Positions 71 through 64,000 of a DNA stretch of 64,000 bases are shown here, piece after piece (within the stretch, counting starts at the first letter, position 1; every line of letters begins with the position of its first letter). The position numbers were made by a program, and so were the translations under genes. This DNA comes from an uncultured Bacillota bacterium. Lineage in GTDB: Bacteria > Bacillota > Clostridia > Christensenellales > UBA1242. The DNA is taken from contig CAMRTM010000001.1 in the NCBI GenBank assembly GCA_947053645.1, forward strand, positions 9,430-73,429. Reading direction: 5' to 3'. The notes under the pieces were generated by a model. That model was not told where the DNA came from. It saw nothing but the letters and a program-made list of their open reading frames with translations, and did no database searches.

Positions 71-523
71 ATGACAGGGAAAGAAGCAGCTATTTTTGTT
101 AGCGGGGTTGTAATTTCATTTGGTGTACTTGGAGGCGGAACTGTTTGGCATCTCTTAAGCAACTTAACAATGCAAAATACTTTAATGTATTACATGAATT
201 CAGCAGAATACCGCCAAGCATGTAATACTGCAGAAGAAAAGTTAAAGACACTAGAAGATGCAATGACTTCAAACAGCGATGCTGAAAAAATTGCTGAACT
301 TGCCAAGCAGTACAACGATTTTAAAGCTAAGTATGAAAGTCGAGACTTTGTTATAGAAAACTTGAAGCAAAACGAACTTGGTAAGGTATACGCAAAAGCA
401 GAGAATGGATATATTGCATCCACGATGATGATGATAATGTCCGGTATGGCAGAAGGTGCATTTGTAATGCTACCACATGTATTCAATAGCAAAAAAGTTG
501 TAGAGGAAGACGACGAAATGTAA
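71..523 (+). CDS. Small membrane protein, hypothetical (150 aa)
   Basis: Good RBS (aaaggagaaagacaaATG). N-terminal TM helix (AAIFVSGVVISFGVLGGGTVWHLL), a second hydrophobic segment near the C-terminus, and an acidic tail. I recognise no family. Confidence 0.6.
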   Translation: MTGKEAAIFVSGVVISFGVLGGGTVWHLLSNLTMQNTLMYYMNSAEYRQACNTAEEKLKTLEDAMTSNSDAEKIAELAKQYNDFKAKYESRDFVIENLKQNELGKVYAKAENGYIASTMMMIMSGMAEGAFVMLPHVFNSKKVVEEDDEM

Positions 524-529
524 TAATAA

Positions 530-559
530 AACAAGTCATGAAAAGTGGCTTGTTTTTTT
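530..559 (+). terminator. Rho-independent terminator after the 150-aa ORF
   Basis: Hairpin acaagtc...ggcttgt followed by T7. Confidence 0.7.
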
Positions 560-687
560 AAAGTCATCTCTAATGTACATAAGATGAATTAAGTGGTACA
601 AAATAAGTGTATAAGATATGCCAAAAGAGGGGAATTTTGAAAAAAATAAAGATTTTTAAAATTTTTTGGAAAAATTTGGAATTCTAT

Positions 688-716
688 TTGACAACCTCCC
701 CCCCCCGTGCTATTTT
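688..716 (+). promoter_or_regulatory. Second promoter with a C9 tract in the spacer: TTGACA (688-693), 17-nt spacer, TGcTATTTT (708-716)
   Basis: Same architecture as the promoter at 13-43, and alignable with it (TTGACAA..TCCCCCCCCCG..TGCTAT). The C9 run is at 698-706. Confidence 0.65.
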
Positions 717-769
717 AGAACTATGGCTAAGGGTAGCCAAATGATTAAATAAATTAAAAGGAGGGTAAA

Positions 770-1468
770 ATGAAAAGTTTATTTAAATCAAAAAATTACA
801 TGATTGGAGCGATAGTAGCCGTATTGCTTCTAGTGCCTTGCATGTTTTTGCTTACTGCATGTGGCGGAAATACTGTAAAGGTGTCTACTTATGACGAACT
901 TGCAAATGCACTTGCTGGCAAGTGTGATACAATTGAAGTTACTGAAGATATTGATATGAAAGGACAATTAGAAGTGGGAAGAAAGGTTACTTTAAACCTT
1001 AATGGTAAAACACTTTCAAACTCAGCGGATATTTGGGATGACGGAGATAGCAAATCATGGTCATTAATTTCAGTTGGAGAGAATGGGCAACTTACAATCA
1101 AAGGTAATGGTAAAATGCTTGCAAAAGAAAATGATTGCTATGCATTTGATGTCCGTGACGGTGGCAAACTGACAATTGAAAACGGTGAATTTGTCGGCAA
1201 TATATCTGTAGTCTATGTGAACAAGGGTAGTGCTGAAATTAAAGGCGGAAAGTATTCGCTTGTACAACTTTCACCAGATGAGAGATTTACTTTAAACTGC
1301 CTTGACGCAAATTATAAAGAGGGTAGTGCTAAGATTGTTGTAACTGGCGGAGAGTTTAAAAACTTTAATCCAGCAGACTGCTTGGCAGAAGGCGAGGGGA
1401 CAAGTTTTGTTCCAGAAGGATACACTGCAAATCTTGTAGAAGGCTACTACAAAGTTGTAAAAGCTTAA
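770..1468 (+). CDS. Putative surface lipoprotein (232 aa)
   Basis: Signal peptide with lipobox LLTAC-GG. RBS aaaaggaggg. Repetitive G-x-L-T-I-x-N/G strands suggest a beta-helix-like fold. No named family recognised. Confidence 0.65.
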   Translation: MKSLFKSKNYMIGAIVAVLLLVPCMFLLTACGGNTVKVSTYDELANALAGKCDTIEVTEDIDMKGQLEVGRKVTLNLNGKTLSNSADIWDDGDSKSWSLISVGENGQLTIKGNGKMLAKENDCYAFDVRDGGKLTIENGEFVGNISVVYVNKGSAEIKGGKYSLVQLSPDERFTLNCLDANYKEGSAKIVVTGGEFKNFNPADCLAEGEGTSFVPEGYTANLVEGYYKVVKA

Positions 1469-2643: not shown

Positions 2644-5034
2644 ATGAAAGTAACATACAATTGGCTAAAGGAATTTGTAGATATTGACATCTCAGCGGAA
2701 GAACTTGCGAAGCGTCTTACAAATGCCGGTATGGAGGTAGAAGAACTTGTTTATCAAAATGAGCATCTTCATCATGTTGTTGTCGGAAAGATTTTGAAAA
2801 TAGACCGCCATCCACAGGCTGATAAATTAGTTGTTTGTCAGGTTGATATTGGAAGCGAAGTGACCCAGATTGTTACTGCGGCAACAAATGTCTTTGAAGG
2901 TGCATTAGTGCCAGTAAGCCTTGCTGGTGCTGACTTATGCAATGGAATTAAAATAGAAAAGTCCAAACTAAGAGGTGTGGACTCTTTTGGTATGTTCTGT
3001 AGTGGCGAAGAACTGGGCATCGATGACAATTACATCGAAGGTGCAAGCGTCAATGGTATTTTAATTCTTCCAGAGGATTTTGTTGTTGGAACTGCAATTG
3101 ATAAGGCGCTTGACCTTGATGATGTTATCTTTGATATAGGCGTGACACCAAATAGGTCAGATTGTATGAGTGTGATTGGTATTGCGCGTGAAGTATGTGC
3201 AGTGCTTGGAAAGACAATGAAAGAGATAGACCTTTCGTATAAAGCGAATGGTGATGATGTAAACAACCATGTGACGGTTAATGTCCTTACTGATAATTGT
3301 CATAGATATATGGCAGGTTATATTCGTGATGTAAAAATCGAACGCTCGCCAATGTGGGTAAGGCGTAGACTTAATGCGGTAGGAATCAAGCCTATTAACA
3401 CGCTTGTCGATATTACAAATTATGTCCTTGTTGAAATGGGACAACCGCTTCATGCTTTTGACGGAGCGCTATTAGTAAATAATCATATAATTGTCCGTCA
3501 GGCTGAAAAGGGGGAGCGATTAGAGTGCTTAAACCATAATGAGTATTCGCTAGACTCTGAAGTAATGGTAATTGCTGATGAAGAAAAACCGGTAGTTATT
3601 GCTGGTGTGATTGGCGGAACGAACTCTTGTATTAATGAGAATACCTTCTGCTGTGTCCTCGAATCTGCTGTGTTTGACTTGAAAAGCATTAGACTTACAA
3701 GTAAGCGTTATGGTGTGCGTACGGACTCTTCCGCACGATACGAAAAAGGTGTAAATGTCGCTTCCGCTGAAGACGGCATAAAACGCGCGCTTCATCTTGT
3801 AGATAAAATGGGTTGTGGTACAATTTCAAAGGGGCTTATTGACCTTAAACAGAAAGAAAATGAAACTAGACGGTTAGAAGGTTCGATAAATGAGATTGAT
3901 AAAATTTTAGGTATAACGGTAGAACCTAAGATTATGAAACGCATTTTGGATGGGCTTTCTATAAAAACAGAAATTGAAGGCGATAAACTTATATGTGAAG
4001 TGCCTCCATATCGCGAGGATATTGAAAATAATAATGACCTTGCCGAAGAGATTATTCGTTTCTATGGCTATGATAAATATGATGAACTTGGACTTGCACT
4101 TTTTGCAAATGCAAGTGTAACGGAAGGGCGTGAACTTCCAAGGATGTCGCTTGAAAATAAAATGAAAAATGTACTTGTAGATAATGGATTCTATGAAACA
4201 TTGAATTTCTCGCTTTGCCCACCAGATGTTTGTGATAAACTTCTTATAAACGATTTACGCAAAGAGCATGTAACTATAACAAATCCTATTTCTGAGGATA
4301 TTTCCTGTCTTCGTACAAGTATGGCACATGCACTTCTTGTTGACCTTGAAACAAACCTTAAAGTCGGAAATGAAGATATTCGATTGTTTGAAATAGGCAG
4401 AACTTATCATCCAAAAGAACTTCCTGTTCGTCATCTTCCAATAGAGAAAAATAGATTATCCTTCCTTGTAAATGAAAAAGGCTTTGATTTTTTCCATATG
4501 AAAGGATTAGTTGAAAACTTACTTTTAATAACTTCTGTAGAATATAAACTTGTTCGCTCGAAAGAAAATTATCTTCATCCAAACATAAGTGCAGATATAA
4601 TTTGTGGCGAGAATACAGTAGGCTGTTTTGGTAAAATTCATCCGCAGGTCGCTAAAAACTATGATGTTGACGCAGATACTTATTACGGTGAACTTGATAT
4701 GGACTATCTATCTCAGTATCAAGAAAAGGGATATTGCGTGAAAGCGGTTTCTAAATTTCCGATTGTAGAGCGTGATATCGCGGTTGTTGTCGATGAAGAC
4801 AAAACTTGTGAAGAGATTTTAGGTGCGGTTAAGTCGGCGTGTGGCAACCTTTGCTATAGCGTGAACCTGTTTGATATTTATAGAAGTGCCACTCTGGGCG
4901 AGGGCAAAAAGAGTATGGCGATAAAAATAAGACTTTCAAGCACTGATCATACACTTAAAGATGATGAAGTGAATGGAGTGATCAATAAAGTACTTAAAGC
5001 CCTTCAGTTTAGATTTGGGGCGGTTTTAAGATGA
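2644..5034 (+). CDS. pheT: Phenylalanine--tRNA ligase beta subunit
   Basis: 796 aa. N-terminal tRNA-binding OB domain (MKVTYNWLKEF...), B3/4 and B5 regions, and a C-terminal FDX-ACB-like domain. Confidence 0.97.
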   Translation: MKVTYNWLKEFVDIDISAEELAKRLTNAGMEVEELVYQNEHLHHVVVGKILKIDRHPQADKLVVCQVDIGSEVTQIVTAATNVFEGALVPVSLAGADLCNGIKIEKSKLRGVDSFGMFCSGEELGIDDNYIEGASVNGILILPEDFVVGTAIDKALDLDDVIFDIGVTPNRSDCMSVIGIAREVCAVLGKTMKEIDLSYKANGDDVNNHVTVNVLTDNCHRYMAGYIRDVKIERSPMWVRRRLNAVGIKPINTLVDITNYVLVEMGQPLHAFDGALLVNNHIIVRQAEKGERLECLNHNEYSLDSEVMVIADEEKPVVIAGVIGGTNSCINENTFCCVLESAVFDLKSIRLTSKRYGVRTDSSARYEKGVNVASAEDGIKRALHLVDKMGCGTISKGLIDLKQKENETRRLEGSINEIDKILGITVEPKIMKRILDGLSIKTEIEGDKLICEVPPYREDIENNNDLAEEIIRFYGYDKYDELGLALFANASVTEGRELPRMSLENKMKNVLVDNGFYETLNFSLCPPDVCDKLLINDLRKEHVTITNPISEDISCLRTSMAHALLVDLETNLKVGNEDIRLFEIGRTYHPKELPVRHLPIEKNRLSFLVNEKGFDFFHMKGLVENLLLITSVEYKLVRSKENYLHPNISADIICGENTVGCFGKIHPQVAKNYDVDADTYYGELDMDYLSQYQEKGYCVKAVSKFPIVERDIAVVVDEDKTCEEILGAVKSACGNLCYSVNLFDIYRSATLGEGKKSMAIKIRLSSTDHTLKDDEVNGVINKVLKALQFRFGAVLR

Positions 5035-13013: not shown

Positions 13014-14297
13014 ATGATTGACATAAACTTGATAAGAACAAATCCAGACCTCGTAAAAGAGAACATAAAGAAGAAATTTCAAGATCAAAAACTTCCTCTT
13101 GTAGATGAGGCAGCCTCTCTTGACAGCAAAATTCGTGCCTTAAAGCAGGAAGGCGATAATTTGCGTGCAAGCAGAAATACGCTTTCAAGCCAAATTGGTA
13201 TGCTTATGAAAGAGAAAAAACTTGAAGAAGCAAACGCTATTAAGGCTAAAGTGCTAAAAAATAACGAGAGAATTTCAGAGATTGAAACAGAAGAACAAGA
13301 ACTATCTGCTCAATTGCGTAAGATAATGCTAACAATCCCAAATCTCATTGATGCTAGTGTGCCTATTGGCAAGGATGATAGCGAAAATGTAGAGGTGGCA
13401 AGATTTGGCGAGGCAAATGTCCCAGAATATGAAATTCCATATCATGCTGATATTCTTGAAAATCTATCTGGTGCAGATTTTGAAAGTGCAAGAAGGACAA
13501 GTGGTACTGGATTTTATTATCTCATTGGCGATATTGCAAGGCTTCATTCGGCAATACTTGCATATGCGCGTGATTTTATGATAAACCATGGATTTACTTA
13601 TTGTATTCCGCCTTTTATGATTAGAAGCAGCGTAGTCACAGGTGTGATGAGTTTTGATGAAATGGAAAACATGATGTATAAAATTGAAGGGGAAGACTTG
13701 TATTTAATTGGTACTAGTGAACATTCTATGATTGGTAGATTTAAAGACACAACTTTAAAGGAAAACTCTTTACCACAATGTTTGACATCCTATTCTCCAT
13801 GCTTTAGAAAAGAAATTGGTGCTCATGGCATTGAAGAACGCGGAGTTTATCGCGTACATCAGTTTGAAAAACAGGAAATGATTGTTGTATGTAAGCCAGA
13901 AGAATCTATGGAGTGGTATGAGAAAATGTGGCGACTTTCTGTAGAATTATTTCGCAGTATGGATATTCCTGTACGCCAACTTGAATGTTGCAGTGGCGAC
14001 TTGGCAGATCTTAAGGTAAAATCTTGTGATATTGAAGCATGGAGTCCAAGACAGAAAAAATATTTCGAGGTTTGCTCTTGCTCTAATTTAGGCGATGCAC
14101 AGGCAAGACGACTAGGAATTAAATATAAGACCGATAAAGGCTTGTTATTAGCACATACGCTTAATAATACCGTTGTTGCACCTCCACGAATGCTTATTGC
14201 ATTTTTAGAGAACAATTATAATGAGGACGGTAGTATTCGTATCCCTAAAGCATTACAGCCATATATGGGCGGAAAAACCGTTATTACTAAAAATTAG
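13014..14297 (+). CDS. serS: Serine--tRNA ligase
   Basis: 427 aa. N-terminal coiled-coil arm and class II core (GTSEHSM, RVHQFEKQE, NNTVVAPPRMLIAFLEN). Confidence 0.96.
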   Translation: MIDINLIRTNPDLVKENIKKKFQDQKLPLVDEAASLDSKIRALKQEGDNLRASRNTLSSQIGMLMKEKKLEEANAIKAKVLKNNERISEIETEEQELSAQLRKIMLTIPNLIDASVPIGKDDSENVEVARFGEANVPEYEIPYHADILENLSGADFESARRTSGTGFYYLIGDIARLHSAILAYARDFMINHGFTYCIPPFMIRSSVVTGVMSFDEMENMMYKIEGEDLYLIGTSEHSMIGRFKDTTLKENSLPQCLTSYSPCFRKEIGAHGIEERGVYRVHQFEKQEMIVVCKPEESMEWYEKMWRLSVELFRSMDIPVRQLECCSGDLADLKVKSCDIEAWSPRQKKYFEVCSCSNLGDAQARRLGIKYKTDKGLLLAHTLNNTVVAPPRMLIAFLENNYNEDGSIRIPKALQPYMGGKTVITKN

Positions 14298-15544: not shown

Positions 15545-16165
15545 CTACCCTATTTGTAGAACGAAAGAGTAGATATCAAGTTGCTTTTTAAGGGCTTTAT
15601 AGTCTGGACAGTGCGATTTTACTTCTTCCCAAAAGGCTTTGGAGTGATTTAGGTGGACGCCGTGACAAAGTTCATGGATTACTACATATTCTATTAGTTC
15701 TTTTGGCAGGATTACAAGTCGCCAATTTAATTTCATGTTGCCCTTTCTATCGTAACTACCCCACACATGACGGGAATTAGAAAGTTTAAAACTTTTATAT
15801 ATGAGTTGCGTTTTTGCGGAAATCTCTTTGGCAATGGTAGGCAAGTGTTTTTCTGCCTCTTTATGATAGAAATCTAAGAGTTTTCCATTTTTATTACCAT
15901 GCATTAGAAGGCTGAGGTCAATATCTTCAAATCTATATTTCTGCCCAAGCAGATAGATATAAGATTGAAAAGCAAACTCGTTACGGAAAGCATTGATTTT
16001 GTTCACCCGTTTTTGTTGCTTTTCAATCCAGTGTAACTTGGAGGTTATAAACTCCTCAATAACCGCATTAGAGGCCTTTAAAGGTGCTTTTACTATTATC
16101 TCCCCTTTGCCATTTACACGCATGGAGATTGTTTTTCGTTTTTCTCTTATAAGATTATATTCCAT
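15545..16165 (-). CDS. M48-like/DUF45 (YgjP-type) zinc metallopeptidase
   Basis: HELCHGVHLNHSKAFW motif typical of DUF45. I prefer the ATG at 16165 (MEYNLIREKRKTISMRV...) over the TTG at 16204 in the ORF track, because that TTG lies inside the upstream terminator. Confidence 0.75.
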   Translation of the reverse strand: MEYNLIREKRKTISMRVNGKGEIIVKAPLKASNAVIEEFITSKLHWIEKQQKRVNKINAFRNEFAFQSYIYLLGQKYRFEDIDLSLLMHGNKNGKLLDFYHKEAEKHLPTIAKEISAKTQLIYKSFKLSNSRHVWGSYDRKGNMKLNWRLVILPKELIEYVVIHELCHGVHLNHSKAFWEEVKSHCPDYKALKKQLDIYSFVLQIG

Positions 16166-16200
16166 ACTTATATTATAGCACGATTTATAAAAATACTGAA
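16166..16200 (-). promoter_or_regulatory. Extended -10 promoter TGcTATAAT (16172-16180) placed 6 nt before the ATG (leaderless geometry)
   Basis: The minus strand reads TTCAGT-17 nt-TATAAT-ataagt-ATG. There is no SD between the -10 and the start codon. Confidence 0.5.
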
Positions 16201-16228
16201 ACAAAAAAGTGGCAAAGCCACTAATTTG

Positions 16229-16894
16229 TTAACCTTCGTATTCCCCTTGATTTTCAAGTATTTTAATTCGTTTATCAAGCATCTCTATCATACCCTTTAT
16301 TCCTAGTTTGCTAGAACCGAGATATTTTTTATTGATGTAACCCTCTCTATTAAAGTAAGGTGCATTTGGGCATACATGTATAAAATCCCCATAAACCTTA
16401 TCAGCATTGTCTAAAACGTTTTTGCGAGCATTGTCATCCACAAAGTAAAGTGTTTTAACTTCATACTGGTGTTTTATTTTGTTGAGGTCATCAAGAATCT
16501 TTGTATTAGTAGGTCGATTTTCTTTAATCTTATTAAAAGAGTTTCCCCAATTATTCCAGCCAGTAAATTTACCTAATTTCCATGTTTGGTCTTCTGTCAT
16601 TATAAGGCTGCAGTCCTCAATGGAGAATTTCTCTTTATTATTTTCCCAAAATGTTATAGTAGACATCCAAGCAGAAGCGGGATAGATTTCATTGCTATCC
16701 ATGTTAGTATGGCTGCCATCCAAATAGAAGTGAATAATGTTTGTTACCTCGCCTTCAAGTTTTCCTATTTTGGCGATTTTTTCAAACATGGAATAGACAA
16801 TGGCGGTGTCATCTTCATCAATGCTCATGCATGAGCCAAAGTCGAATACTGTTTGAAGTTCTATCATCCATACATTTACTTGTTTCTTCCTCAT
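16229..16894 (-). CDS. Hypothetical protein (221 aa)
   Basis: The ATG at 16894 lies 8 nt downstream of AAAGGAGG. The GTG at 16903 in the ORF track overlaps the SD. No family recognised. Terminator agtggc-aaa-gccact at 16203-16222. Confidence 0.55.
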   Translation of the reverse strand: MRKKQVNVWMIELQTVFDFGSCMSIDEDDTAIVYSMFEKIAKIGKLEGEVTNIIHFYLDGSHTNMDSNEIYPASAWMSTITFWENNKEKFSIEDCSLIMTEDQTWKLGKFTGWNNWGNSFNKIKENRPTNTKILDDLNKIKHQYEVKTLYFVDDNARKNVLDNADKVYGDFIHVCPNAPYFNREGYINKKYLGSSKLGIKGMIEMLDKRIKILENQGEYEG

Positions 16895-17090
16895 ATAGCA
16901 CACCTCCTTTATGTTTTCAGTATATCATAGATATTTTGTTTGTCAAGGGTGAAATGTTTTTATGCCGCTATTATGCAATGCATATTAGCACAAGATATGG
17001 CAAAATTTTTGCATAATAGTGCCAATTTGTTTGACGAAGTCACTATTTTTATATATAATTTATTTATAAATATATATTAACGAGGGAAAT

Positions 17091-18788
17091 ATGGATATTT
17101 ACGCAAAAGGTCAACTTTCTTTCTTGATTTTAAACTGTCTTTTAGAGAGAGATTTTTATGGGCTTGATATTATCACTGAAATAAGAGAGCGTACGAATGG
17201 AAAAATAGACTTAAAGAAGCCTAGCGTTTATTCAAACCTTACAAGAATGGAAAAGCAAGGGCTTGTTTCTTCATATCTGCAATCAAGCGATCTTGGCCCA
17301 AACAGACGCTATTACTCTATTACTGAAAGAGGAAGAAAAACGCACCAAGAGTTGAAAGAAGAGTTTGAACGCAACCATTTTGATGTATTTAGAGATTTTG
17401 GTGAGGCTGAAGATGAGCCGATAGCACAACCTATCCTATCGCAAGAGCAACCAGCCTCAGTCCTTTCTCCTATGCAAGAAGATATGGAGGAAGATGAAGA
17501 AGAAATGGATGGCTTCTTTGATTTTTCTTCGCTTGATTCCCCTAAGCCAAGTGAGCCTAAACAATCAGTTTTTGTACAAGAAGAAGTTAAAGAAGACCCT
17601 GTGATAGTAGATTCTGTAATTGAAGAAGCACTTTTAGTAACCGAGCCTGTGAAAGAGCCAGAGCCAGTCCAAGAGGTTATTTCTACACCAGCAACAGAGG
17701 AGGAGTCAGTGCCATATATTTCCCCTCTTAAAGCACAAGCACAGGAAACAAAACAAACAAGTTTTGATGACCCAGATTACAATAAACGCATTTATGATAT
17801 AACTAAAGATTTTAACAAGTATCGTAGAAAGAGAAGTTTTGCGGAAGATCAATTGGCTTTTGATGTAAAGGATACCGATTTTTCTCTTCAAGACTCAGAG
17901 GCTAAGAGACAAGAAAAAATAGAAGTTTTCAAGTCTGCCCTTCTTGAAAGTAAGGGGCGTTTTGGTGAGAGAATGGCAGAGGAAGAATTTAAAAAACCAG
18001 CCACTCCAGCATATACAAGGCCTATGCCAGTGCCTACTCCTATGGCACAAGAGGAAAAGGAAGAAGAAAAGCAAGATGATGGTGTGTTTATAACAAATCG
18101 AGTTGAACGCGAAAATGTTATGCGTACCCGCAAGATTGAACCTCCTAGGCTTAAGATAGTAAATGAAAATCCACCTCTCCCAGCACCTAAGCGTGATGCA
18201 AGTATAGATCCTTCTCACAAGGAAATCATTTCACAATTATATTCAAAGAGCAAAGGTTCAGATACCGTGCAAGAGGAATTAGATATTGGCTTATACGATT
18301 ATGACGATCTTTCAGATTACTATAATGCAAGCAATATTTCATTTAAAACATATGAGCAGAATAAAGCGAAAACAAAGCATAATACAAACAAACTTAACAT
18401 GATTGCCTCTGCTATCACATTTACTCTACTATGTATTTTCTCTAGCGTGTTATTTGCTGTACTCTACACACAAGGTTTGACTAATCCTAATACAAGTTTT
18501 CTTTACATAATTATTCCAGGTGCGTATTTCATTGATGTTTGTGCAAAACTATCCGCACTTAAAAATACAAGTTGGGAGCCTAAGCCTATGCTGCCTCAAT
18601 GGTTTATGTGGCTTATGACATTACTAACTTGCGGAGTTGTTGTCGGACTTAATTTCTTATTTGGAATGAATATTGAATCCTTATCTTTATATTACACTAC
18701 CCTCATTCTTCCAATTGTTTCAATTATAGCTGTGCTTCCATTTAGATATTATGTAAAGCGTAATCTTTTTATAAGAAAGTGGAAATAG
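17091..18788 (+). CDS. PadR-family winged-helix domain fused to an acidic/proline-rich linker and a C-terminal multi-pass membrane domain
   Basis: 565 aa. The N-terminus (LILNCLLERDFYGLDIITEI...SVYSNLTRMEKQGLVSS) is PadR-like. About 330 aa are low-complexity and E/P/K-rich. The C-terminus has about 4 predicted TM helices. Confidence 0.7.
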   Translation: MDIYAKGQLSFLILNCLLERDFYGLDIITEIRERTNGKIDLKKPSVYSNLTRMEKQGLVSSYLQSSDLGPNRRYYSITERGRKTHQELKEEFERNHFDVFRDFGEAEDEPIAQPILSQEQPASVLSPMQEDMEEDEEEMDGFFDFSSLDSPKPSEPKQSVFVQEEVKEDPVIVDSVIEEALLVTEPVKEPEPVQEVISTPATEEESVPYISPLKAQAQETKQTSFDDPDYNKRIYDITKDFNKYRRKRSFAEDQLAFDVKDTDFSLQDSEAKRQEKIEVFKSALLESKGRFGERMAEEEFKKPATPAYTRPMPVPTPMAQEEKEEEKQDDGVFITNRVERENVMRTRKIEPPRLKIVNENPPLPAPKRDASIDPSHKEIISQLYSKSKGSDTVQEELDIGLYDYDDLSDYYNASNISFKTYEQNKAKTKHNTNKLNMIASAITFTLLCIFSSVLFAVLYTQGLTNPNTSFLYIIIPGAYFIDVCAKLSALKNTSWEPKPMLPQWFMWLMTLLTCGVVVGLNFLFGMNIESLSLYYTTLILPIVSIIAVLPFRYYVKRNLFIRKWK

Positions 18789-18816
18789 AAAAAAGCAAGT
18801 TATACTTGCTTTTTTC
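18789..18816. terminator. Bidirectional terminator at the convergence point of + and - strand gene blocks
   Basis: A6-agcaagt-tat-acttgct-T6. The stop codon of the minus-strand gene (18800-18802) lies partly in the loop. Confidence 0.8.
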
Positions 18817-19420
18817 TATTTATTAATTTTCTATTAATTGCTTTTATAAGACTTATTGATAAATCTATAGTAAGGAATACAACGACTATTGCTATTGAAA
18901 ATATAAGTATATACCCGATTGAATTTGAAAGCACAGTACATAGTAGTGTCACAATACTACAAGAGATAAAACCACCTATCGCAATCGAAAGAAGTGACCA
19001 GTGTAACTTTAGATTAGAAAGTCCAGCTATAAAACTGCCCGCCCAGATACCAGTCAAAGGAAGAGGCAAAGCGACAAATGTAGTAAGAAAAAGGTATTTT
19101 TTAAAGGTGCTTTCCTGTTTTTCAAGTAATGTAGATTTGACGCTATACCTACTTTTAAGAACGCCAGTTAAAAAGCCAGTGGTATGGCGTTTTATTTTTC
19201 TTGCGAGAAACATAATCAATATACTTGGAAGAATGCTGCCAACAAATCCAAAAAGTAGTGCTTGCCACGGTGGAAGAGCAGTCCCACCCCATAAACTTGT
19301 ATTCATAGCAAAAGGTATTGCGATTTTACTTTCAAGCGTGGGAATCATTGCAAGTAAGATTACAGCAAGCCAAATACAGGACGAAAAATTTTCAGCAAAG
19401 ATTTTAATTACATTATCCAT
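18800..19420 (-). CDS. Membrane protein, small multidrug export-like family (COG2426-like)
   Basis: 206 aa. ESKIAIPFA and LPLPLTGIWAGSFIAGL resemble the conserved motifs of that family (E-x-x-x-AIP, PLP-x-TG-x-W-x-G). Confidence 0.45.
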   Translation of the reverse strand: MDNVIKIFAENFSSCIWLAVILLAMIPTLESKIAIPFAMNTSLWGGTALPPWQALLFGFVGSILPSILIMFLARKIKRHTTGFLTGVLKSRYSVKSTLLEKQESTFKKYLFLTTFVALPLPLTGIWAGSFIAGLSNLKLHWSLLSIAIGGFISCSIVTLLCTVLSNSIGYILIFSIAIVVVFLTIDLSISLIKAINRKLINRKKQV

Positions 19421-19496
19421 ATTACTATATTATTCTTACGAATTAGCGAATATGAAAAAAAAGTGGCTCGGCCACTTTTTTTATAATCAATAATTG

Positions 19497-19715
19497 TCAC
19501 TTCTTCTTCCTAAATAAGAATATTACACACAATGCAAATGGAATGGCACACACCCCTATTATTAGCGGAGTTAAAGGAATAAGTAATCCCCTTAAAGCAA
19601 ATACATCCACCCCACAGGCGTCAAGAATAGGAATATATGCAAAACTAACGCCAATGAGAGATAACGATAAACCCATTAGAACTATCTTCCAAAATAATTT
19701 CATAAGATTCTCCAC
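19497..19715 (-). CDS. Small membrane protein (72 aa)
   Basis: Two hydrophobic helices and a basic C-terminus (RKKK). Followed by terminator agtggc-tcg-gccact at about 19458-19486. Confidence 0.45.
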   Translation of the reverse strand: MENLMKLFWKIVLMGLSLSLIGVSFAYIPILDACGVDVFALRGLLIPLTPLIIGVCAIPFALCVIFLFRKKK

Positions 19716-29798: not shown

Positions 29799-31511
29799 CT
29801 ATCTTTCTAAAAATTTATTTGTTGTTTTTACCTCTTCCATAAACATATTCATTTTACTGAGAGGGTCTTGAGAATATCTTCTGCGCAAATCAATATCAGT
29901 TGCTGAAGTTTCTCCATAGACATTTATAAGTGCATTGTACCAATCGTCTTCTGTCTGATTTTTTATAGCGTCATTGAAGGTTTCAATTTGGGATGCAAGT
30001 AAATCAAGGATACCTTTTATATCTCTATCATCAAACTGCGAACATATTCTATATAGATAGTTGTAGTCATAAGGATTTATATTTTTATCCCCTTCTTGAA
30101 TTTGATTGATATATTTTTCTACCGCTGTATATACTTGTGCAACAATCTCTTCATCATGAGTTAAATCGTAATTAAGCATATGTTGCAAGTAGGCAAATTT
30201 TTTGTCAGAGAAGAATTGTATTACTAGGTTACGATATTCTTCTTCTCCTACAAAGTTTGTTTCTGACCATTTGATATTTTTAAAGGTATTTTCAGTCACA
30301 TTATTACTTGCAAGACGAGAAAGTATATCATCCTTTTTGAATATTGTATTTTCTAGTGTATCACCGTTATTAACATTCGCCCAAGCAGTATTTTGCTTGT
30401 TTCTTAAGCATGATTCTATCATTGTTATGCCTTCACTATAACCAAGTTTAATAAATTCATTAAATACAATAGTTATTTCTTGAAGGTTGGCATTTGCACA
30501 AAAGATGGGAAGTGCTTCTTTGCTTACACTATACAATAAATTCATTGCGAGTTGATAATCCTGCGATTTTTGCATTATCATATCAGTATCATCCTGTGTA
30601 TACAGTATATACAACGCCTCATCGCGTTTACTGCGATTAGCATATTCATTCATTAAATTGTAAAGAGCCGTTATTTTATCAATATTAAATTCCATTGATT
30701 TTATGTAATTTGTTTTTGCATTCAATATAGCATTTTCTGATGTATTGTCAACTTGAAGAAAATCATCTAATTGTGTGAGTAGCAATTTTACTTTATTTTG
30801 TTCTCCCCTTTCTTTAAATATTTGAACTATGTTTTCCATCATTGTTTTTAAGAATATGTAGGAGTATTTTCTTGCTTCTTGTTCATATGGGTAAGTATAA
30901 TAAATCGAAAGAACCATTTCCTCTTTATTTTCTGTTTTTCGAAAAAGTTTTAATGTTTTATCTCGTAATTTTAATTTGAATGCATCGTTAGTATTCTGGT
31001 TAGTATTTTGGAAAGCATTTGCCAATCGTATTGAAGATATGCCAGATTTGCTGATACCTTCTTTTTTAATGCGTTGCAAATAATGTGTGTATTCATGCCC
31101 TAATGATAGTATTGAAAAGAAAAGACAAACTAAACTATTTTTTAATTTATCATTGCCTATTAAGCAATAAGTTTTGATTTTATTTAAATTAAAAAATATT
31201 TTAAATTTTTCTTTATTGCCGACAGAATATTTATTCAATGTAGCATATGAATTAATAGTGTTGTCAATAATTACAGGTAAATATTCTGTTTTGAAACTGA
31301 GATATGGATTATTATTTATAAGGCTATCAAGAAATGCCTGTGTTTCTTTATCTGAAATTTCAGTGTCTGATAAAACAAGGTTTATATAGTTTACAAAGAC
31401 TTCCTCTTGCTTCATATTATTTAGATTTACGAGAGGATTTGGTCTTTTTACTTTTAATCCTAATTTTTGTTGTATTTCTTTTTCTTGTTCTTTTAATTGA
31501 CTATAATTCAT
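29799..31511 (-). CDS. Hypothetical 570-aa protein with an HExxH motif (putative zinc metallopeptidase-like domain)
   Basis: LGHEYTHYLQR, and about 60 aa downstream YPYEQEARKYS (a possible third-ligand or ImmA/IrrE-like E-x-EA pattern). The rest is helical and N/K-rich. No family recognised. Confidence 0.55.
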   Translation of the reverse strand: MNYSQLKEQEKEIQQKLGLKVKRPNPLVNLNNMKQEEVFVNYINLVLSDTEISDKETQAFLDSLINNNPYLSFKTEYLPVIIDNTINSYATLNKYSVGNKEKFKIFFNLNKIKTYCLIGNDKLKNSLVCLFFSILSLGHEYTHYLQRIKKEGISKSGISSIRLANAFQNTNQNTNDAFKLKLRDKTLKLFRKTENKEEMVLSIYYTYPYEQEARKYSYIFLKTMMENIVQIFKERGEQNKVKLLLTQLDDFLQVDNTSENAILNAKTNYIKSMEFNIDKITALYNLMNEYANRSKRDEALYILYTQDDTDMIMQKSQDYQLAMNLLYSVSKEALPIFCANANLQEITIVFNEFIKLGYSEGITMIESCLRNKQNTAWANVNNGDTLENTIFKKDDILSRLASNNVTENTFKNIKWSETNFVGEEEYRNLVIQFFSDKKFAYLQHMLNYDLTHDEEIVAQVYTAVEKYINQIQEGDKNINPYDYNYLYRICSQFDDRDIKGILDLLASQIETFNDAIKNQTEDDWYNALINVYGETSATDIDLRRRYSQDPLSKMNMFMEEVKTTNKFLER

Positions 31512-35960: not shown

Positions 35961-37199
35961 CTACACTATATTTGCCGAGCACATGATTAGTCCCAGCAGG
36001 ATGAAATATATGAAGACTACCCCTATTAATAAACTGATAAGCAGTGTCATACTTTTCGCAAGTGAAGAGGCAAAATTTGCTATTTGACTATTGCCAAGTG
36101 GTTCTACTATGCCGGCAATTAGTTTAAGCGAGAGCATAAATAAAATTAGTTCTAGTAATGGTGACACCACAGTGGCTATAAGTAACAATAGTCCACCTGC
36201 GCCTACTGCATTTTTTATGAGATTTGAACTTGCTAGAATTAATCCAAATCCGTCTGAAATGTATGAACCTAGTATTGGTACATACGATTTTATTGCGTAT
36301 TTTGCTGTCCTTATGCTTATGCCATCGACTGAACCTGCAGTAATACCTTGAATTGATAAAAAAGCAGAAAATATCGTGAAAATTAACCCTGTTAGCCATT
36401 TATAAGTGCTATTCCAAAAGGATGTAAACTTATTTAATTTTAAGTTTGTTGATAGATTTGATACCACACTAAATACTGTAGAGAAGATAAATATAGGAAG
36501 CAAAATATAGGTAAATATATTAAGTATTGCCCCACTTAAAAGTGCCATGGCTGGTTGATATACACTTACCGATACCGTTCCACCTATTGCAGTCATTAGC
36601 GTTAAGAGTATTGGAAAAATAGCATCCATTTGCCCTTTGATATTTAATATAGTTCCACTTGCAAGTTTGACCATATGTGTAGTCATTGTAAGCAGTATAA
36701 CTATAGTCATTCCATAAGTAACAAAATGTATAAGATTCGATATCGACTTACCATTGGTATTTGGTCTTAGCCCCTGTAGCATTCCACCAAAAATTGCTAT
36801 TGCTATTACGAGGGATATTATAGGTAAAAATTTCAGTAGATTATCAAAGACAAGGGAAAGAAGTGCTTCCCAAATACTTTTACTGTTATCCGCAAATTTA
36901 CCTGTGATAATTGATGTGATTTTATCTAGAAAACTACTGCTTCCAAAGATTTCTCCCTCTTTTCCTGTAAGAGAAGAAATAAGATCCTCTAAACTAGAAA
37001 AATCAAGTTTGCCTAGTTGGTCAAAGATTGTATCTTCAAATTCCTGTTCAATCTCACTCTTTCCATCATCTGTGACTGCTTGTGCAACGGGGCTTGTCAG
37101 CGGAATAACAAGAAAGATTAATAATATAACTATAAGTATTCGTTTGAGATTACCTTTCTTTTTATTATTGTTTGGGCATTTATATCCTAGTTTTCTCAT
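35961..37199 (-). CDS. spoIIIAE: Stage III sporulation protein AE
   Basis: 412 aa polytopic membrane protein with a signal peptide. Operon position. Confidence 0.88.
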   Translation of the reverse strand: MRKLGYKCPNNNKKKGNLKRILIVILLIFLVIPLTSPVAQAVTDDGKSEIEQEFEDTIFDQLGKLDFSSLEDLISSLTGKEGEIFGSSSFLDKITSIITGKFADNSKSIWEALLSLVFDNLLKFLPIISLVIAIAIFGGMLQGLRPNTNGKSISNLIHFVTYGMTIVILLTMTTHMVKLASGTILNIKGQMDAIFPILLTLMTAIGGTVSVSVYQPAMALLSGAILNIFTYILLPIFIFSTVFSVVSNLSTNLKLNKFTSFWNSTYKWLTGLIFTIFSAFLSIQGITAGSVDGISIRTAKYAIKSYVPILGSYISDGFGLILASSNLIKNAVGAGGLLLLIATVVSPLLELILFMLSLKLIAGIVEPLGNSQIANFASSLAKSMTLLISLLIGVVFIYFILLGLIMCSANIV

Positions 37200-53267: not shown

Positions 53268-56189
53268 TTATACGCTTTCTTCTTCACTAACAGAATATAC
53301 AATTTGGAGATAGAAATCAATAAATTTTTCTACTTCTTCCTTATTTGAGAATAATAGGCTGGATGGAGATTTATAACCGAGTTCTTTTGATTTTTTTGTT
53401 TGGAATACGGGTGTTAAATTTCCTGCTACTTTATCTGTGTGCGCTTTTAGATTGTTATAAACATCTCCAAATTTATTAATAAGGTATTTATCTACCCCTG
53501 CTCTTACGCATGCATCTTCAATAATGGCCGCTATCATTGTGTCATCTTCTAGTGATGAATTTTTACCAAATTCTAAATGCTTTGTTTCAACTTCAACTTC
53601 AAAATCACCAAGTAAATTTGTCATTTTCTTTTTACTTGAATGTATATCGTTTTTAAGATTCTTATATGTGTCGACTTGTACAAGTCCGCGTTTTTGAAGA
53701 AGATCAAAAATTGCTTTCATAAGTGGTAAAATGTAAATATAAAGTGCAAAACCTGTATATGTTGTGACATCAGGAATATGATTGATTTCATTTCGTATTT
53801 CTTTGAGAAGGGCTTTCTGCTCTTTTGGAATAATGTCATCGAGCAAAACATCAATATTTTCAACAACATTATTTTGTAATAAAAATTCTAGTTTATCTAT
53901 TGGTTTTTCTACAGTTTTTATCTGTTCTTCTTCATTTTCAGTTGTACTATTTGCTACTCTAATTTTTAAGTTCTCTTTTTCTGCTTGGCTTAGATCCTTT
54001 GTTGCCTCTTCAAATTTTTTCTCTACATCAGCAATAGAATAAAATGCTACTGCCTCTTTATTAACCGCTTGTACATATTCATCATAGTTATTAATAAGTT
54101 CATTTGATTGTATAATCGCTGGATAACTTGTGGAAACAAGAGGATTGAAGATACGCAATTCTCTTTTATTACCACTATTTATAAGTAAGGAGGAAGCCTT
54201 TTTTAACAAATCATGCTGATTATCAGACACCTCTATTAGATCTGTAATTCCAATTAAAATATTTTCAAGATTTGTCTTATTATCAAACTCTACTGCATTA
54301 AGATTTTGTAACCATGTTGGAGAAGTTTTTCCAGTATCCTTTTCGTAGATTAATGTGATTATTTTATCGCGAAGTTTTCTTATTGTATTGTAAACATCAT
54401 CCATAGGTTTATCATATGCTAAATATGCCTTAAATGAAGTTGTGATATTCTTTAGTGAAGGTGCCTTATAATAATATCCATTTTTGATAAAACCATCAAT
54501 TAGTGGTAGAAAATATGCATTGAAAGCTTTGTCTAGCGACATCTCCTCTACTTTTGGGAATTTTAGACTCTTTCTTCTTAACTCTTGCTTTTCTTCAAGA
54601 GTAAGTTCCTGTTTTTGTGGTTGTTCAGGCATTACCACTAAAGTCTTTGATGTGTTTTTTGCCTTTGAACCAGATTTTACTTTTTGTGCTTTCTTATTCT
54701 CTCTTCTCATTTCGCGAAGGGCTTTGAGATTTTCCTCTTCCTGTCTTCTTCTCTCATCTTCAAGGCGAGCCTCTTCTTTTCTTCTATTCTCTTCTAGTTC
54801 TTTGATTTTGGCAAGGTTTTTAACAGTAAGTCCAAAACTCGTTTTATTCAGTCTATTTTTAAGTTTTGCATACTCTTCATCGGTGAGTGAAATATCAGGA
54901 AGTTTTTTAACTGTAATTTCTTTCTTTTTGCTTCGTTCAAAACTATGTTCATTATCGTTTGGAGTTTCAGTGCCTCTTTGCTCTTGCTGTGCTTTGGCAA
55001 GGAATGGATATGGATTGCGAACAAAGTAATCGCGAAGTGGGAGTTTGCTTGTCCTCTCCTCTTTGACAAGTGTGGCAAGCATAAATTCAAGCATACTTGG
55101 ATCAGAGGATATTACAGACATATTTTGCATACATGTTACTGTATTATCAATCCCTAAGTAATGTTCCAAAACCTCACTTATAATACTAAGATTTTCAACA
55201 TTAACCTTTTCTATCTGCGTCAAGTGATTTATATCTAATGTAAATTTATCACTAAGTGCCACTGCAAAACTATGAGGATTTTTCTCCGTTTTTGTTCTTT
55301 CAGCATACGGCTTTTTGGTTATCAATTTTTCAATTTCTTCTGTTAAATATTTGTTGACTGTTGTGACATTGTTGGACTTTACTAAAAGTAAAGAAGGAGA
55401 TGCTTTTATTCGCATTAGTAGTTTACTATCCATCTCATAGCCGTTGCATAGTTTTAACATATCTATTGCGTCTTCTATATCTTTAGGTTTTGCAAGCAAT
55501 ATACTTGGAACACTTTTTATTATCTCGCGAGGTTCATACACAAAAGAATTTGTCTTTTTATCATACAAAATATCATTAAGTACATTCAAAATCTCTTGTA
55601 TTGATTGTGAATTTAAGTTGTATGCAACTGATGCACATTTTTCAAGTATATCTTTTGTTTCCTCTTGTGAAAATAATTCGCGAGGTTGTCCCTTAGGAGC
55701 ATAATATTTTTCAAGCATTAATGCTTCAAGTGAGGTTTGGAATTTTGCCAAATTTGCTCCTTGTATATTTGTTTTGATTGCAAGTTTGAATGGGTCTATT
55801 TTAAGTGCCTTTGCCTCACGAAGTACATCAATAAATTCATCCTTGACAGCATTATTTTCTTTTGCAAATATTTCAATTGTATTATCAACTACTCCTCTTG
55901 CATAATCGCGTCTTTCCTCTCTATTTAATCCACTTATATCATTTTTAACAAATGCTTCATAGATGTCTTGCAAAGTTGCTACAAGTTTTTCATCGGTTTT
56001 TTCACATATATTCTCTATGTACAATTCAATCTCGTCTTCATCAAAGCAAAAATGAGTTGAAAAAATCTTTCTTATTTCTTCAGCTGCCTTCTTAAATTTT
56101 TCATTAGTAAAAAGAAGGTCCTTTACCGCGTTTTTCTCCTCTTCTGTCAAATTCTTTATTGATGTTAAAGTTCTTTTCACTCTTGCCAT
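53268..56189 (-). CDS. Large hypothetical protein (973 aa), helical with a central charged coiled coil
   Basis: Uninterrupted ORF with SD (ggaggaaaaATG), its own consensus promoter and its own terminator. Central EENRRKEEARLEDERRRQEEENLKALREMRRENKK. The N-terminal half contains repeated h-P-S-h-L-L segments (SVPSILLAKPKDI, ASPSLLLVKSNNV, SSDPSMLEFML). Confidence 0.7.
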   Translation of the reverse strand: MARVKRTLTSIKNLTEEEKNAVKDLLFTNEKFKKAAEEIRKIFSTHFCFDEDEIELYIENICEKTDEKLVATLQDIYEAFVKNDISGLNREERRDYARGVVDNTIEIFAKENNAVKDEFIDVLREAKALKIDPFKLAIKTNIQGANLAKFQTSLEALMLEKYYAPKGQPRELFSQEETKDILEKCASVAYNLNSQSIQEILNVLNDILYDKKTNSFVYEPREIIKSVPSILLAKPKDIEDAIDMLKLCNGYEMDSKLLMRIKASPSLLLVKSNNVTTVNKYLTEEIEKLITKKPYAERTKTEKNPHSFAVALSDKFTLDINHLTQIEKVNVENLSIISEVLEHYLGIDNTVTCMQNMSVISSDPSMLEFMLATLVKEERTSKLPLRDYFVRNPYPFLAKAQQEQRGTETPNDNEHSFERSKKKEITVKKLPDISLTDEEYAKLKNRLNKTSFGLTVKNLAKIKELEENRRKEEARLEDERRRQEEENLKALREMRRENKKAQKVKSGSKAKNTSKTLVVMPEQPQKQELTLEEKQELRRKSLKFPKVEEMSLDKAFNAYFLPLIDGFIKNGYYYKAPSLKNITTSFKAYLAYDKPMDDVYNTIRKLRDKIITLIYEKDTGKTSPTWLQNLNAVEFDNKTNLENILIGITDLIEVSDNQHDLLKKASSLLINSGNKRELRIFNPLVSTSYPAIIQSNELINNYDEYVQAVNKEAVAFYSIADVEKKFEEATKDLSQAEKENLKIRVANSTTENEEEQIKTVEKPIDKLEFLLQNNVVENIDVLLDDIIPKEQKALLKEIRNEINHIPDVTTYTGFALYIYILPLMKAIFDLLQKRGLVQVDTYKNLKNDIHSSKKKMTNLLGDFEVEVETKHLEFGKNSSLEDDTMIAAIIEDACVRAGVDKYLINKFGDVYNNLKAHTDKVAGNLTPVFQTKKSKELGYKSPSSLLFSNKEEVEKFIDFYLQIVYSVSEEESV

Positions 56190-62521: not shown

Positions 62522-64000
62522 CTAAATCTTTTTATTTTTAACTTCACTTAATAATCTCTCGACAAAATTCGCTAAAGTTAGTCCGCTTTGATTCTCGTAA
62601 CCTCGTCCGCGTATTGATATCGTTTTATTTTCCTCTTCTTCATCCCCAACTATAATTAAATATGGTATTTTCATAGCCATAGCTTCACGAATCTTATAGC
62701 CTATCTTTTCATTTCTATAATCACCTTCAACTCTTAGGTTGTGCTTTCTTAACTCGCAAACTATTCCTTTTGCATATTCATTATTTCTCTCTGTAAGTGA
62801 AAGCACCCTTATCTGTTCTGGAGCAAGCCAAAGAGGAAATGCACCTGCAAAATGTTCAATAAGGATTCCAATAAATCTATCTATTGAACCATATATTACT
62901 CTATGAATCATTATTGGGCGGTGCTTTTCGCCGTCTTCACCTGTGTACTCTAATTCAAAGCGTTGTGGAAGTTGGAAATCAAGTTGGATTGTTCCGCACT
63001 GCCATGTTCTACCTAAAGCGTCCTTAAGGTGGAAATCTATTTTAGGCCCATAAAAGGCTCCGTCGCCTTCATTTACTACATAATCTCTTCCTAGTTCATC
63101 GAGTGCCTCTATTAGAGCGTTTGTCGCGTTTTCCCAATCTTCATCACTTCCCATGCTATTTTCTGGGCGTGTGGAAAGTTCAATTTCATACGAAAAATTA
63201 AACAGCGTATATACTTCATCAATAAGTGCTACCACATCTTTTATTTCATCTTTTATCTGCTTTGGCGTCATAAATATATGGGCATCATCTTGCGTAAAAC
63301 ATCTTACTCTCATAAGTCCGCCTAGTTCCCCTGATTTCTCATGGCGATGAACAAGTCCTAGTTCCCCTAGTCTAAGCGGCAAATCACGATAGGAATGTGG
63401 AGCGTTTTTATATACTAGTACTCCGCCCGGGCAATTCATTGGTTTAATTGCATAGTCGGTGTCATCTATCTTTGTTGTGTACATATTATCTTTATAATGG
63501 TCCCAATGCCCTGAGGTTTCCCATAGGTGCTTTGACAGCATGATTGGAGTCATAACCTCTTTGTACCCTGCTTTACGATGAATATCATGCCAGTAGTCTA
63601 TCAGTTCATTCCTTATTACCATTCCATTTGGCAAATAGAATGGAAAACCCATTCCTTCAGGTGAAAGCATAAATAAACCTAGTTCTTTACCTAGTTTCCT
63701 ATTATCTCTCTTTTTTGCCTCTTCTAACATCTTTAAATATTCTGCTAGGTCTTTCTTTGTCTTAAACGCATAGACATATACACGCTGGAGCATTTTATTC
63801 TTCTCACTGCCACGCCAATATGCACCATTTACGCTATGAATTTTAAAGCCATATGCTTGCAATTTATTGGTACTTTCTACATGAGGTCCTCGGCACAAAT
63901 CTACAAAATCGTCGCCGGTATAATACAGCGAAACTTCTTCGTTATCTGGAAGATCGCGTATTATCTCTTCCTTATATTCATTTCCAGCAAAAAGTTGTAA
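62522..64000 (-). CDS. thrS: Threonine--tRNA ligase (5' end beyond the window)
   Basis: Class II core (HRHEKSGELGGLMRVRCFTQDDAHIF) and anticodon-binding domain. The frame stays open upstream of the ATG at 63898 in the ORF track, through to the window edge. Confidence 0.95.
   Translation of the reverse strand, partial: LQLFAGNEYKEEIIRDLPDNEEVSLYYTGDDFVDLCRGPHVESTNKLQAYGFKIHSVNGAYWRGSEKNKMLQRVYVYAFKTKKDLAEYLKMLEEAKKRDNRKLGKELGLFMLSPEGMGFPFYLPNGMVIRNELIDYWHDIHRKAGYKEVMTPIMLSKHLWETSGHWDHYKDNMYTTKIDDTDYAIKPMNCPGGVLVYKNAPHSYRDLPLRLGELGLVHRHEKSGELGGLMRVRCFTQDDAHIFMTPKQIKDEIKDVVALIDEVYTLFNFSYEIELSTRPENSMGSDEDWENATNALIEALDELGRDYVVNEGDGAFYGPKIDFHLKDALGRTWQCGTIQLDFQLPQRFELEYTGEDGEKHRPIMIHRVIYGSIDRFIGILIEHFAGAFPLWLAPEQIRVLSLTERNNEYAKGIVCELRKHNLRVEGDYRNEKIGYKIREAMAMKIPYLIIVGDEEEENKTISIRGRGYENQSGLTLANFVERLLSEVKNKKI

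Follow-up and report, generated by a model that had tools for sequence, protein, structure and literature searches.

Introduction

Transcription of porA in Neisseria meningitidis is set by the length of a poly-G tract in its promoter. The Vlp surface lipoproteins of Mycoplasma hyorhinis are transcribed from one promoter per gene, each with a poly-A run in the spacer, and a spacer of 17 nt corresponds to the ON state. A passage in PMC3960869, citing Sarkari et al. 1994, describes a similar arrangement for N. meningitidis opc, where the length of a poly-C run in the promoter sets the transcription level. According to excerpts of PMC4746626 and PMC9187656, slippage in G or C runs also controls surface structures in Cutibacterium acnes and in the pilus genes of Bifidobacterium breve. 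A recent review that cites the Vlp system gives, for Clostridia, inversion-based phase variation only (PMC11868660), and literature searches of partial coverage did not turn up any account of promoters in Clostridia or Christensenellales that vary in phase through repeats.

We analyzed a predicted promoter, P2, at positions 688-716 of a 64-kb stretch of DNA from an uncultured gut bacterium of the Clostridia (the window, to which all coordinates without a contig name refer). Like opc and porA, P2 has a C or G homopolymer between the recognition elements of a promoter for a predicted surface protein, and the tract lengths in the P2 family (7-14) fall in the same range. The neisserial genes differ in that they belong to a Gram-negative pathogen, encode outer-membrane proteins and have had their switching and expression measured, whereas P2 is a prediction from sequence, its host is an uncultured, probably spore-forming member of the Clostridia from the gut, and its product is a lipoprotein.

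P2 shares with the Vlp system a low-GC, Bacillota-related lineage, a lipoprotein product that is predicted to be on the surface and a homopolymeric tract that separates the -35 from the -10 box. Adjacent vlp genes can switch independently, and the same is proposed for P2 and the neighboring promoter P1. However, the Vlp system has poly-A tracts, tandem arrays of paralogs and in-frame coding repeats that cause size variation, in contrast to poly-C or poly-G tracts, unrelated adjacent genes and no coding repeats in the case of P2. We therefore rejected P2 as a Vlp-type system. C. acnes and B. breve are host-associated Gram-positives like the P2 host, but they are high-GC Actinobacteria, and the B. 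breve tract, as described in the excerpts, is intragenic and acts by frameshift. The outcome proposed for P2 resembles the stochastic ON/OFF control of surface or signaling genes in gut anaerobes by invertible promoters, as in gut Bacteroidales and Clostridioides difficile (PMC11868660), but these promoters depend on a site-specific recombinase that acts on inverted repeats, and there are none at P2.

A C9 tract in the spacer of a predicted sigma-A-type promoter

The original prediction had placed a promoter with a 17-nt spacer at 688-716, and the sequence bears this out directly. On the plus strand, the -35 hexamer TTGACA (688-693) is followed by a spacer of 17 nt, made up of ACCT (694-697), a run of nine cytosines (698-706), which is the proposed slippage site, and GTGC (707-710). 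The -10 box TATTTT (711-716) is of the extended type, with TG at 708-709 followed by a C, and this element (708-716) is unchanged in L001-L004, L105 and L106. Both boxes were also recovered by a scan for promoter consensus sequences, according to which 688-716 is the sole sigma-70-like site on the plus strand of the intergenic region 524-769 (10 of 12 consensus matches, TG present). The promoter lies 53 nt upstream of the open reading frame 770-1468, whose ATG at 770 is preceded by a ribosome-binding site, AAGGAGGG, at 758-765. As far as the sequence goes, the data support the prediction of a sigma-A-type promoter that has the tract in its spacer and drives a gene for a lipobox protein.

Close to the predicted 5' end of the transcript there is a weak 6-bp hairpin (TGGCTA-AGGG-TAGCCA, 724-739, plus strand; -7.2 kcal/mol, z = -1.8). 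Its counterpart in L105 is shifted and has an intact stem, which is again weak evidence. A GAGAGTGAA-like motif recurs about 5-15 nt past the -10 box in the 5' untranslated regions of several related loci (L006, L007, L014, L015, L017 and L107); P2 of the window does not have this motif and has the small hairpin instead. No Rfam family reached threshold anywhere in the 64-kb window, so that no riboswitch or leader accounts for the 5' untranslated region of P2. In the same Rfam comparison, no T-box leader was found before pheST (1510-1618), serS (13014-14297) or thrS (62522-63898), which is unusual for Bacillota.

C and G runs of this kind are rare in the window, as the original prediction had also noted. 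Apart from the C9 tracts at 698-706 and 22-30, the latter belonging to P1, the window contains no C or G run of 7 nt or more. Next in length comes a C6 (45386-45391), which was considered as a possible third cassette and rejected, since it falls within infB, encoded on the opposite strand. At a GC content of 35.6%, base composition predicts 0.016 C9 or G9 runs in 64 kb, as compared with the two observed, both in spacers between -35 and -10 boxes. The search pattern suggested with the prediction (TTGACA, C-run, TAT) matched the window twice, and 100 dinucleotide-preserving shuffles gave no match.

The downstream gene encodes a predicted beta-helix lipoprotein

The gene at 770-1468 (plus strand) encodes a lipoprotein of 232 amino acids. 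Its N-terminus, MKSLFKSKNYMIGAIVAVLLLVPCMFLLTA/CGG, consists of a basic start, a hydrophobic core and the lipobox LTAC (LTA/C31), as read from the translation and the alignment of homologs, and Cys31 of the lipobox is invariant in 29 homologs. A terminator scan placed an intrinsic terminator downstream of the gene, at 1482-1507 on the plus strand.

For the mature protein, a right-handed beta-helix is predicted, based on an AlphaFold model (pLDDT 89) that is all-beta and of the right-handed-helix type. The match to PF20585, a pectate-lyase-like adhesive domain, is marginal (24.8 bits at a cut-off of 24.3) and covers residues 35-129 only. A structure search with the model against the PDB gave no significant match (best E = 0.05); the top, weak neighbors (E of at least 0.05) were pectate lyases, the SRRP adhesin of Lactobacillus reuteri and autotransporter passengers. 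Judging from the model, the function may be like that of beta-helix adhesins or glycan-binding proteins. Signal peptide, lipobox and beta-helix model together predict that the protein is exposed on the cell surface.

Hundreds of unnamed metagenome proteins belong to the same family, and the nearest relatives in genome databases come from metagenome-assembled genomes (MAGs) labeled as uncultured Clostridia, Christensenellales, Ca. Onthoplasma and Ca. Caccovivens. The gene at 770-1468 contains no tandem repeats and has no paralog in the 64-kb window. Elsewhere in the window, a SpoIIIAE homolog (35961-37199, minus strand, E = 2.5e-64) points to a member of the Clostridia that forms endospores or has endospore-forming ancestors. 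Two large open reading frames on the minus strand (53268-56189, 973 amino acids, and 29799-31511, 570 amino acids) have no Pfam match at E <= 1e-5. The cumulative GC skew peaks at about 16000-19500, and gene orientation changes from plus to minus at about 18.8 kb; this region could be replication terminus-like.

Tract promoters in the lipoprotein family and in metagenomes

In order to survey the family, GTDB species representatives were scanned, and 80 loci with a total of 485 kb were fetched. Nearly all C or G runs of at least 7 nt in these 485 kb are located about 40-60 nt upstream of the ATG of a lipoprotein gene, between boxes of near-consensus sequence. A spacer tract of 7-14 nt directly upstream of the gene was found in 13 of about 35 loci of close orthologs, all from MAGs of uncultured Clostridia or Christensenellales. 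The remaining close orthologs have ordinary promoters instead, with spacers of 17 ± 1 nt and no tract.

The tracts are C10 in L007, C9 in L017 and in L019, C12 and C14 in two tandem modules of L006, and C7 to C10 in the L015 group. Poly-G on the coding strand takes the place of poly-C in L014/L064, L022 and L024 (G8 in each case; in L024 an extra A restores the 17-nt spacer). In L026 there is a G10 near the gene, but the assignment of the promoter and of the start codon is doubtful at this locus. Contigs encoding P0082 had G9 in five of six cases, and contigs encoding P0139 had G8 in all four. The species with P0003 and P0051 were fetched for tract polymorphism, turned out to be tract-less and were hence taken as controls; the length of their promoters is constant over 10 and 10 contigs, respectively.

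Some of the loci have further peculiarities. The two modules of L006 (2747-2945), TTGACA-TACA-C12 and TTTACA-AA-C14, are 122 bp apart, belong to a single lipoprotein gene and have spacers of 19 and 20 nt. Strains of the P0003 species have either a single lipoprotein gene or two in tandem, with an identical tract-less promoter (L085 1501-3117 versus L089 1501-2223). L014 contains, at 3855-4810 on the minus strand, a second tract promoter (TTGACA-ACT-C8-ATTGA-TATAAT, 16-nt spacer) together with the gene behind it, for a protein of 302 amino acids. This protein has no signal peptide, so that tract promoters in this group are not limited to envelope proteins.

We also scanned metagenomes with the pattern TTGACA-N0-6-C9-N3-9-TATAAT, and at least 120 stretches matched. 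Among the matches listed, spacers peak at 16-17 nt, and many pairs have identical flanks and differ only in tract length (for example L134/L153, L161/L174, L164/L208 and L139/L154). Again among the matches listed, 52% of the downstream open reading frames have a hydrophobic or lipobox N-terminus, versus 19% of the background (odds ratio 4.6, p = 3.5e-10), as judged by a crude classifier, with some alleles being non-independent and with a background that consists of the open reading frames of the same contigs, spurious ones included. A scan with the flanks of P2 itself (TTGACAA-N6-20-GTGCTATTTTAGAACTATGGCTA) gave no match in the metagenomes. Four high-GC metagenome contigs (L141, L145, L156 and L186) have C10- or C11-spacer promoters with identical flanks before NusG-like genes (MSGLRCWYAVYTKPNAEYRVARLL...), and the tract length varies by contig.

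Tract length varies among otherwise identical alleles

The original prediction had named the lack of tract-length polymorphism as a finding that would speak against a switch, and such polymorphism is present at P2 itself. Five alleles (the window and four contigs) encode an identical lipoprotein, and their tracts are C8, C9 or C10. The window, L002 and L003 have ACCT-C9. L001 has ACT-C10, so that its spacer is still 17 nt long; two substitutions would explain this allele equally well. L004 has ACCT-C8, on a contig with a coverage of 2.6x, which makes this length less reliable, since a homopolymer miscall is possible. Over about 230 nt of intergenic DNA, length differences between the five alleles are confined to the C-run and to one A7/A8 run.

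More distant alleles were found in L105 and L106, which encode a protein with 93% identity and have AGT-C9 in a spacer of 16 nt. Upstream of the -35 box, these sequences have diverged almost completely from the window, whereas the DNA from the -35 box to the ATG is conserved, including the C9. This pattern of conservation argues for selection on the core promoter.

The evidence for length variation is strongest in the L015 group. Over 1,113 nt, the tract is the sole difference between L245 (C10), L015 (C9) and L251 (C8). An alignment of 15 copies of this cassette has 96 columns with substitutions and only three sites with insertions or deletions, namely the tract, one base of an A-run and one other base. 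Together with the contigs found by exact match to the proteins P0126 and P0127, there are 26 alleles, with spacers of 15-19 nt, which fall into three flank haplotypes: AAT- (C8, C9, C10 and C8T), AATT- (C8, C9 and C10) and AATCCA- (C7, C8 and C9). Contigs for P0126 have AAT-C9 (five contigs and L016), AATT-C10 (four contigs, for two of which the coverage is given, as 13x and 20x), AATT-C9 (L015) and AATT-C8 (L251, 2.9x). Those for P0127 have AATCCA-C9 (five), AATCCA-C7 (two), AATCCA-C8 (one), AAT-C9 and AAT-C8, and the AATCCA haplotype is also present in L204 (C9) and L025 (C7). Among otherwise identical alleles, length variation is thus nearly all concentrated in the tract.

The 1,113-bp cassette is made up of the lipoprotein gene, its terminator and about 300 nt of upstream DNA, in which the C-tract promoter lies. 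It is found with at least 98.9% identity in three contexts (L245 1702-2814, L247 1701-2814 and L242 1703-2814). Two of them adjoin uvrB, and the genomes concerned share only 88% identity in an alignment of 3.2 kb that includes the cassette. In the third, the cassette replaces the middle of a trpS-like gene (L245, L249, L251, L015, L258 and L259). The near-identity of the cassette in three contexts suggests recent horizontal spread of a ready-made unit; no mobility gene and no terminal repeats are visible at the cassette.

A second tract promoter of the same design

P1, the other C9 promoter of the window, is also on the plus strand. It comprises the -35 hexamer TTGACA (13-18), a spacer of 19 nt (AAT-C9-GCCATGC, with the tract at 22-30) and an extended -10 element (35-43) with TG at 35-36, a C and TATAAT at 38-43. 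The gene behind it (71-523, plus strand) encodes a small membrane protein of 150 amino acids with an N-terminal transmembrane segment, and a hairpin followed by a T-run (524-560, plus strand), identified in a repeat scan, is its likely terminator. The protein is a strain-specific orphan according to translation and searches. An exact-protein look-up found nothing, and a homology search of 5.8 billion sequences returned the protein of the window alone, with no close relative. It is missing from the four contigs with an identical lipoprotein (L001-L004), where the gene next upstream encodes a pseudouridine synthase and has the opposite orientation. P1 and the 150-aa gene are therefore a strain-specific addition. 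This also weakens the suggestion, made with the original prediction, of a contingency locus that may extend beyond the window on this side.

An exhaustive HMMER search with the 150-aa protein found one real relative, P0122, with 36% identity. Its gene (L239 2501-2926) encodes a lipobox, IAGC, and lies behind a C9 promoter that is orthologous to P1. This promoter reads TATTGACA-AT-C9-ACTATGG-TATAAT and has a spacer of 18 nt, as compared with 19 nt in P1. The promoter with its -35 hexamer, the untranslated region, the ribosome-binding site and the hairpin terminator are all conserved between L239 and the window. The equivalent rluD/pheS slot of L239 holds the P0122 gene, inverted relative to the 150-aa gene of the window, and has no lipoprotein gene. 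Judging by the gene contents compared here, this slot is occupied variably by genes for small envelope proteins.

The original prediction had taken P1 and P2 for copies of a duplicated promoter module. The data do not support this: their common part is limited to TTGACAA, T-C9-G and TGCTAT (18 nt at 83%), and these shared stretches are the consensus boxes and the tract. Moreover, the two promoters have separate orthologs elsewhere, P1 in L239 and P2 in L105/L106, which points to two old, independent promoters of one design. P1 and P2 are probably not the result of a duplication.

Alternative explanations

Length variation in the tract is observed, its effect on expression is inferred, and spacers of 16-18 nt may all function. 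The tract might thus be a neutral mutational hotspot, a chance homopolymer that drifts in a tolerant spacer without any effect on expression or fitness. However, the tract recurs at the same promoter position in lineages that are only about 50% identical, and it does so on both strands. The window has just two such runs, against 0.016 expected, and both are in spacers. At P2 the tract was kept while the upstream DNA diverged, and envelope-protein targets are enriched among the matches listed from the metagenome scan. Taken together, these observations make a neutral hotspot unlikely, even though it is the most serious of the competing explanations.

Alternatively, the tract could be a fixed structural or regulatory element of the spacer, a stiff G:C block or the site of a factor, with a length of about 9 under selection and with length differences that are incidental. 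C9 is the modal length, and the tract is conserved between the window and the species of L105. In addition, C9 has been kept in both P1 orthologs even though the proteins are only 36% identical, and it is identical, with a spacer of 19 nt, in seven of seven contigs of the P0071 species. The P0071 contigs show that consensus lengths can be stable, and that not all tract promoters are optimally spaced. On the other hand, either poly-C or poly-G is found on the same coding strand, which argues against a strand- or sequence-specific site, and lengths span 7 to 14. The occurrence of both strand orientations over this range of lengths suggests that it is the homopolymer itself that is selected. Three lengths are found on each of the three otherwise identical haplotypes of the cassette. 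Finally, flank changes offset the changes in the tract in L001 (ACT-C10) and L024 (G8 and an extra A), which suggests that it is the length of the whole spacer, and not the tract as such, on which selection acts. We consider a fixed element improbable.

Homopolymers are also subject to sequencing and assembly errors, and a real but invariant tract could appear variable for this reason. Deviant alleles are indeed on contigs of very low coverage, namely L004 (C8, 2.6x), L111 (G8, 2.1x) and L251 (C8, 2.9x). However, AATT-C10 was found in four independent contigs, including the two at 13x and 20x, as opposed to AAT-C9 in seven others. AATCCA-C9 and AATCCA-C7 were found five times and twice, respectively, in P0127 contigs of different samples, and once more each in L204 and L025. 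Moreover, particular lengths go together with particular flank haplotypes and with species, as in the case of G8 and G9. Errors are therefore very improbable as the general explanation.

Lastly, the phase variation that has so far been described in Clostridia and gut Bacteroidales takes the form of invertible promoters (PMC11868660), but inversion of P2, with the C-run being irrelevant, was rejected with near certainty, because there are no convincing inverted repeats in the region around the promoter (about 600-770), none of any quality flank 688-716, and the orientation of the promoter is the same in seven of seven alleles.

Discussion

At the level of sequence, P2 has the features expected for repeat-mediated phase variation of a promoter spacer. 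Slippage is associated with uninterrupted homopolymers or short repeats of about 7 units or more, and the C9 runs at 698-706 and 22-30 are of this kind. The repeat lies between the predicted -35 and -10 boxes of P2, and the same arrangement is apparent in 13 orthologous loci. Its length is polymorphic among identical or near-identical alleles, both at the P2 locus and in the 1,113-nt cassette.

We consider it likely, though by no means certain, that the C9 run is prone to slippage, that the promoter around it, of the sigma-A type (TTGACA-N17-TGcTATTTT), transcribes the gene for a surface-anchored beta-helix lipoprotein, and that this promoter acts as a switch or rheostat. Replication would occasionally add or drop a C, and the distance and angle between the -35 and -10 boxes would be altered as a result. 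A spacer of 17 nt would be near-optimal, spacers of 16 or 18 nt would be weaker, and those of 19-20 nt would be low or off. Descendants of a cell would then differ, heritably and reversibly, in the amount of lipoprotein, and the outcome could be an on/off switch or a graded "dimmer" of lipoprotein transcription. P1 of the neighboring 150-aa membrane-protein gene would be an independent promoter of the same design, at present with a 19-nt spacer. On this view, the length of the spacer would control transcription, and switching would be frequent in a clone and of adaptive value, in the evasion of phage, immunity or competitors. No mismatch-repair gene was found among the ten largest open reading frames of the window.

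Since the mechanism itself is textbook, the findings are of value in that they extend it to another lineage and in that the comparative evidence is unusually clean. New are the lineage, the clarity of the comparative signal, and a cassette of promoter, gene and terminator that is apparently shared horizontally. Catalogs of phase variation in gut anaerobes have so far consisted almost wholly of DNA inversions, in Bacteroidales and C. difficile.

There is also a broader reading, which we offer tentatively and would rate at slightly below an even chance. Repeat-based promoter switching may be a lineage-wide and overlooked source of surface variation in uncultured gut Clostridia (Christensenellales-like organisms such as Ca. 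Onthoplasma, Ca. Caccovivens and relatives). It would be carried on a self-contained 1.1-kb unit that comprises a C-tract promoter, the gene for a beta-helix lipoprotein and a terminator and that moves between species and chromosomal sites, and promoters with spacer tracts of C9 or longer would be common in environmental and gut metagenomes, with a preference for envelope proteins. If spacer homopolymers do switch surface lipoproteins in abundant uncultured Clostridia, strain-level metagenomics misses a layer of phenotypic heterogeneity that is relevant to interactions with phages, the immune system and glycans. Tract length would then be a simple readout of this heterogeneity, extractable from reads, and the mobile cassette would suggest that such switches spread horizontally as ready-made units.
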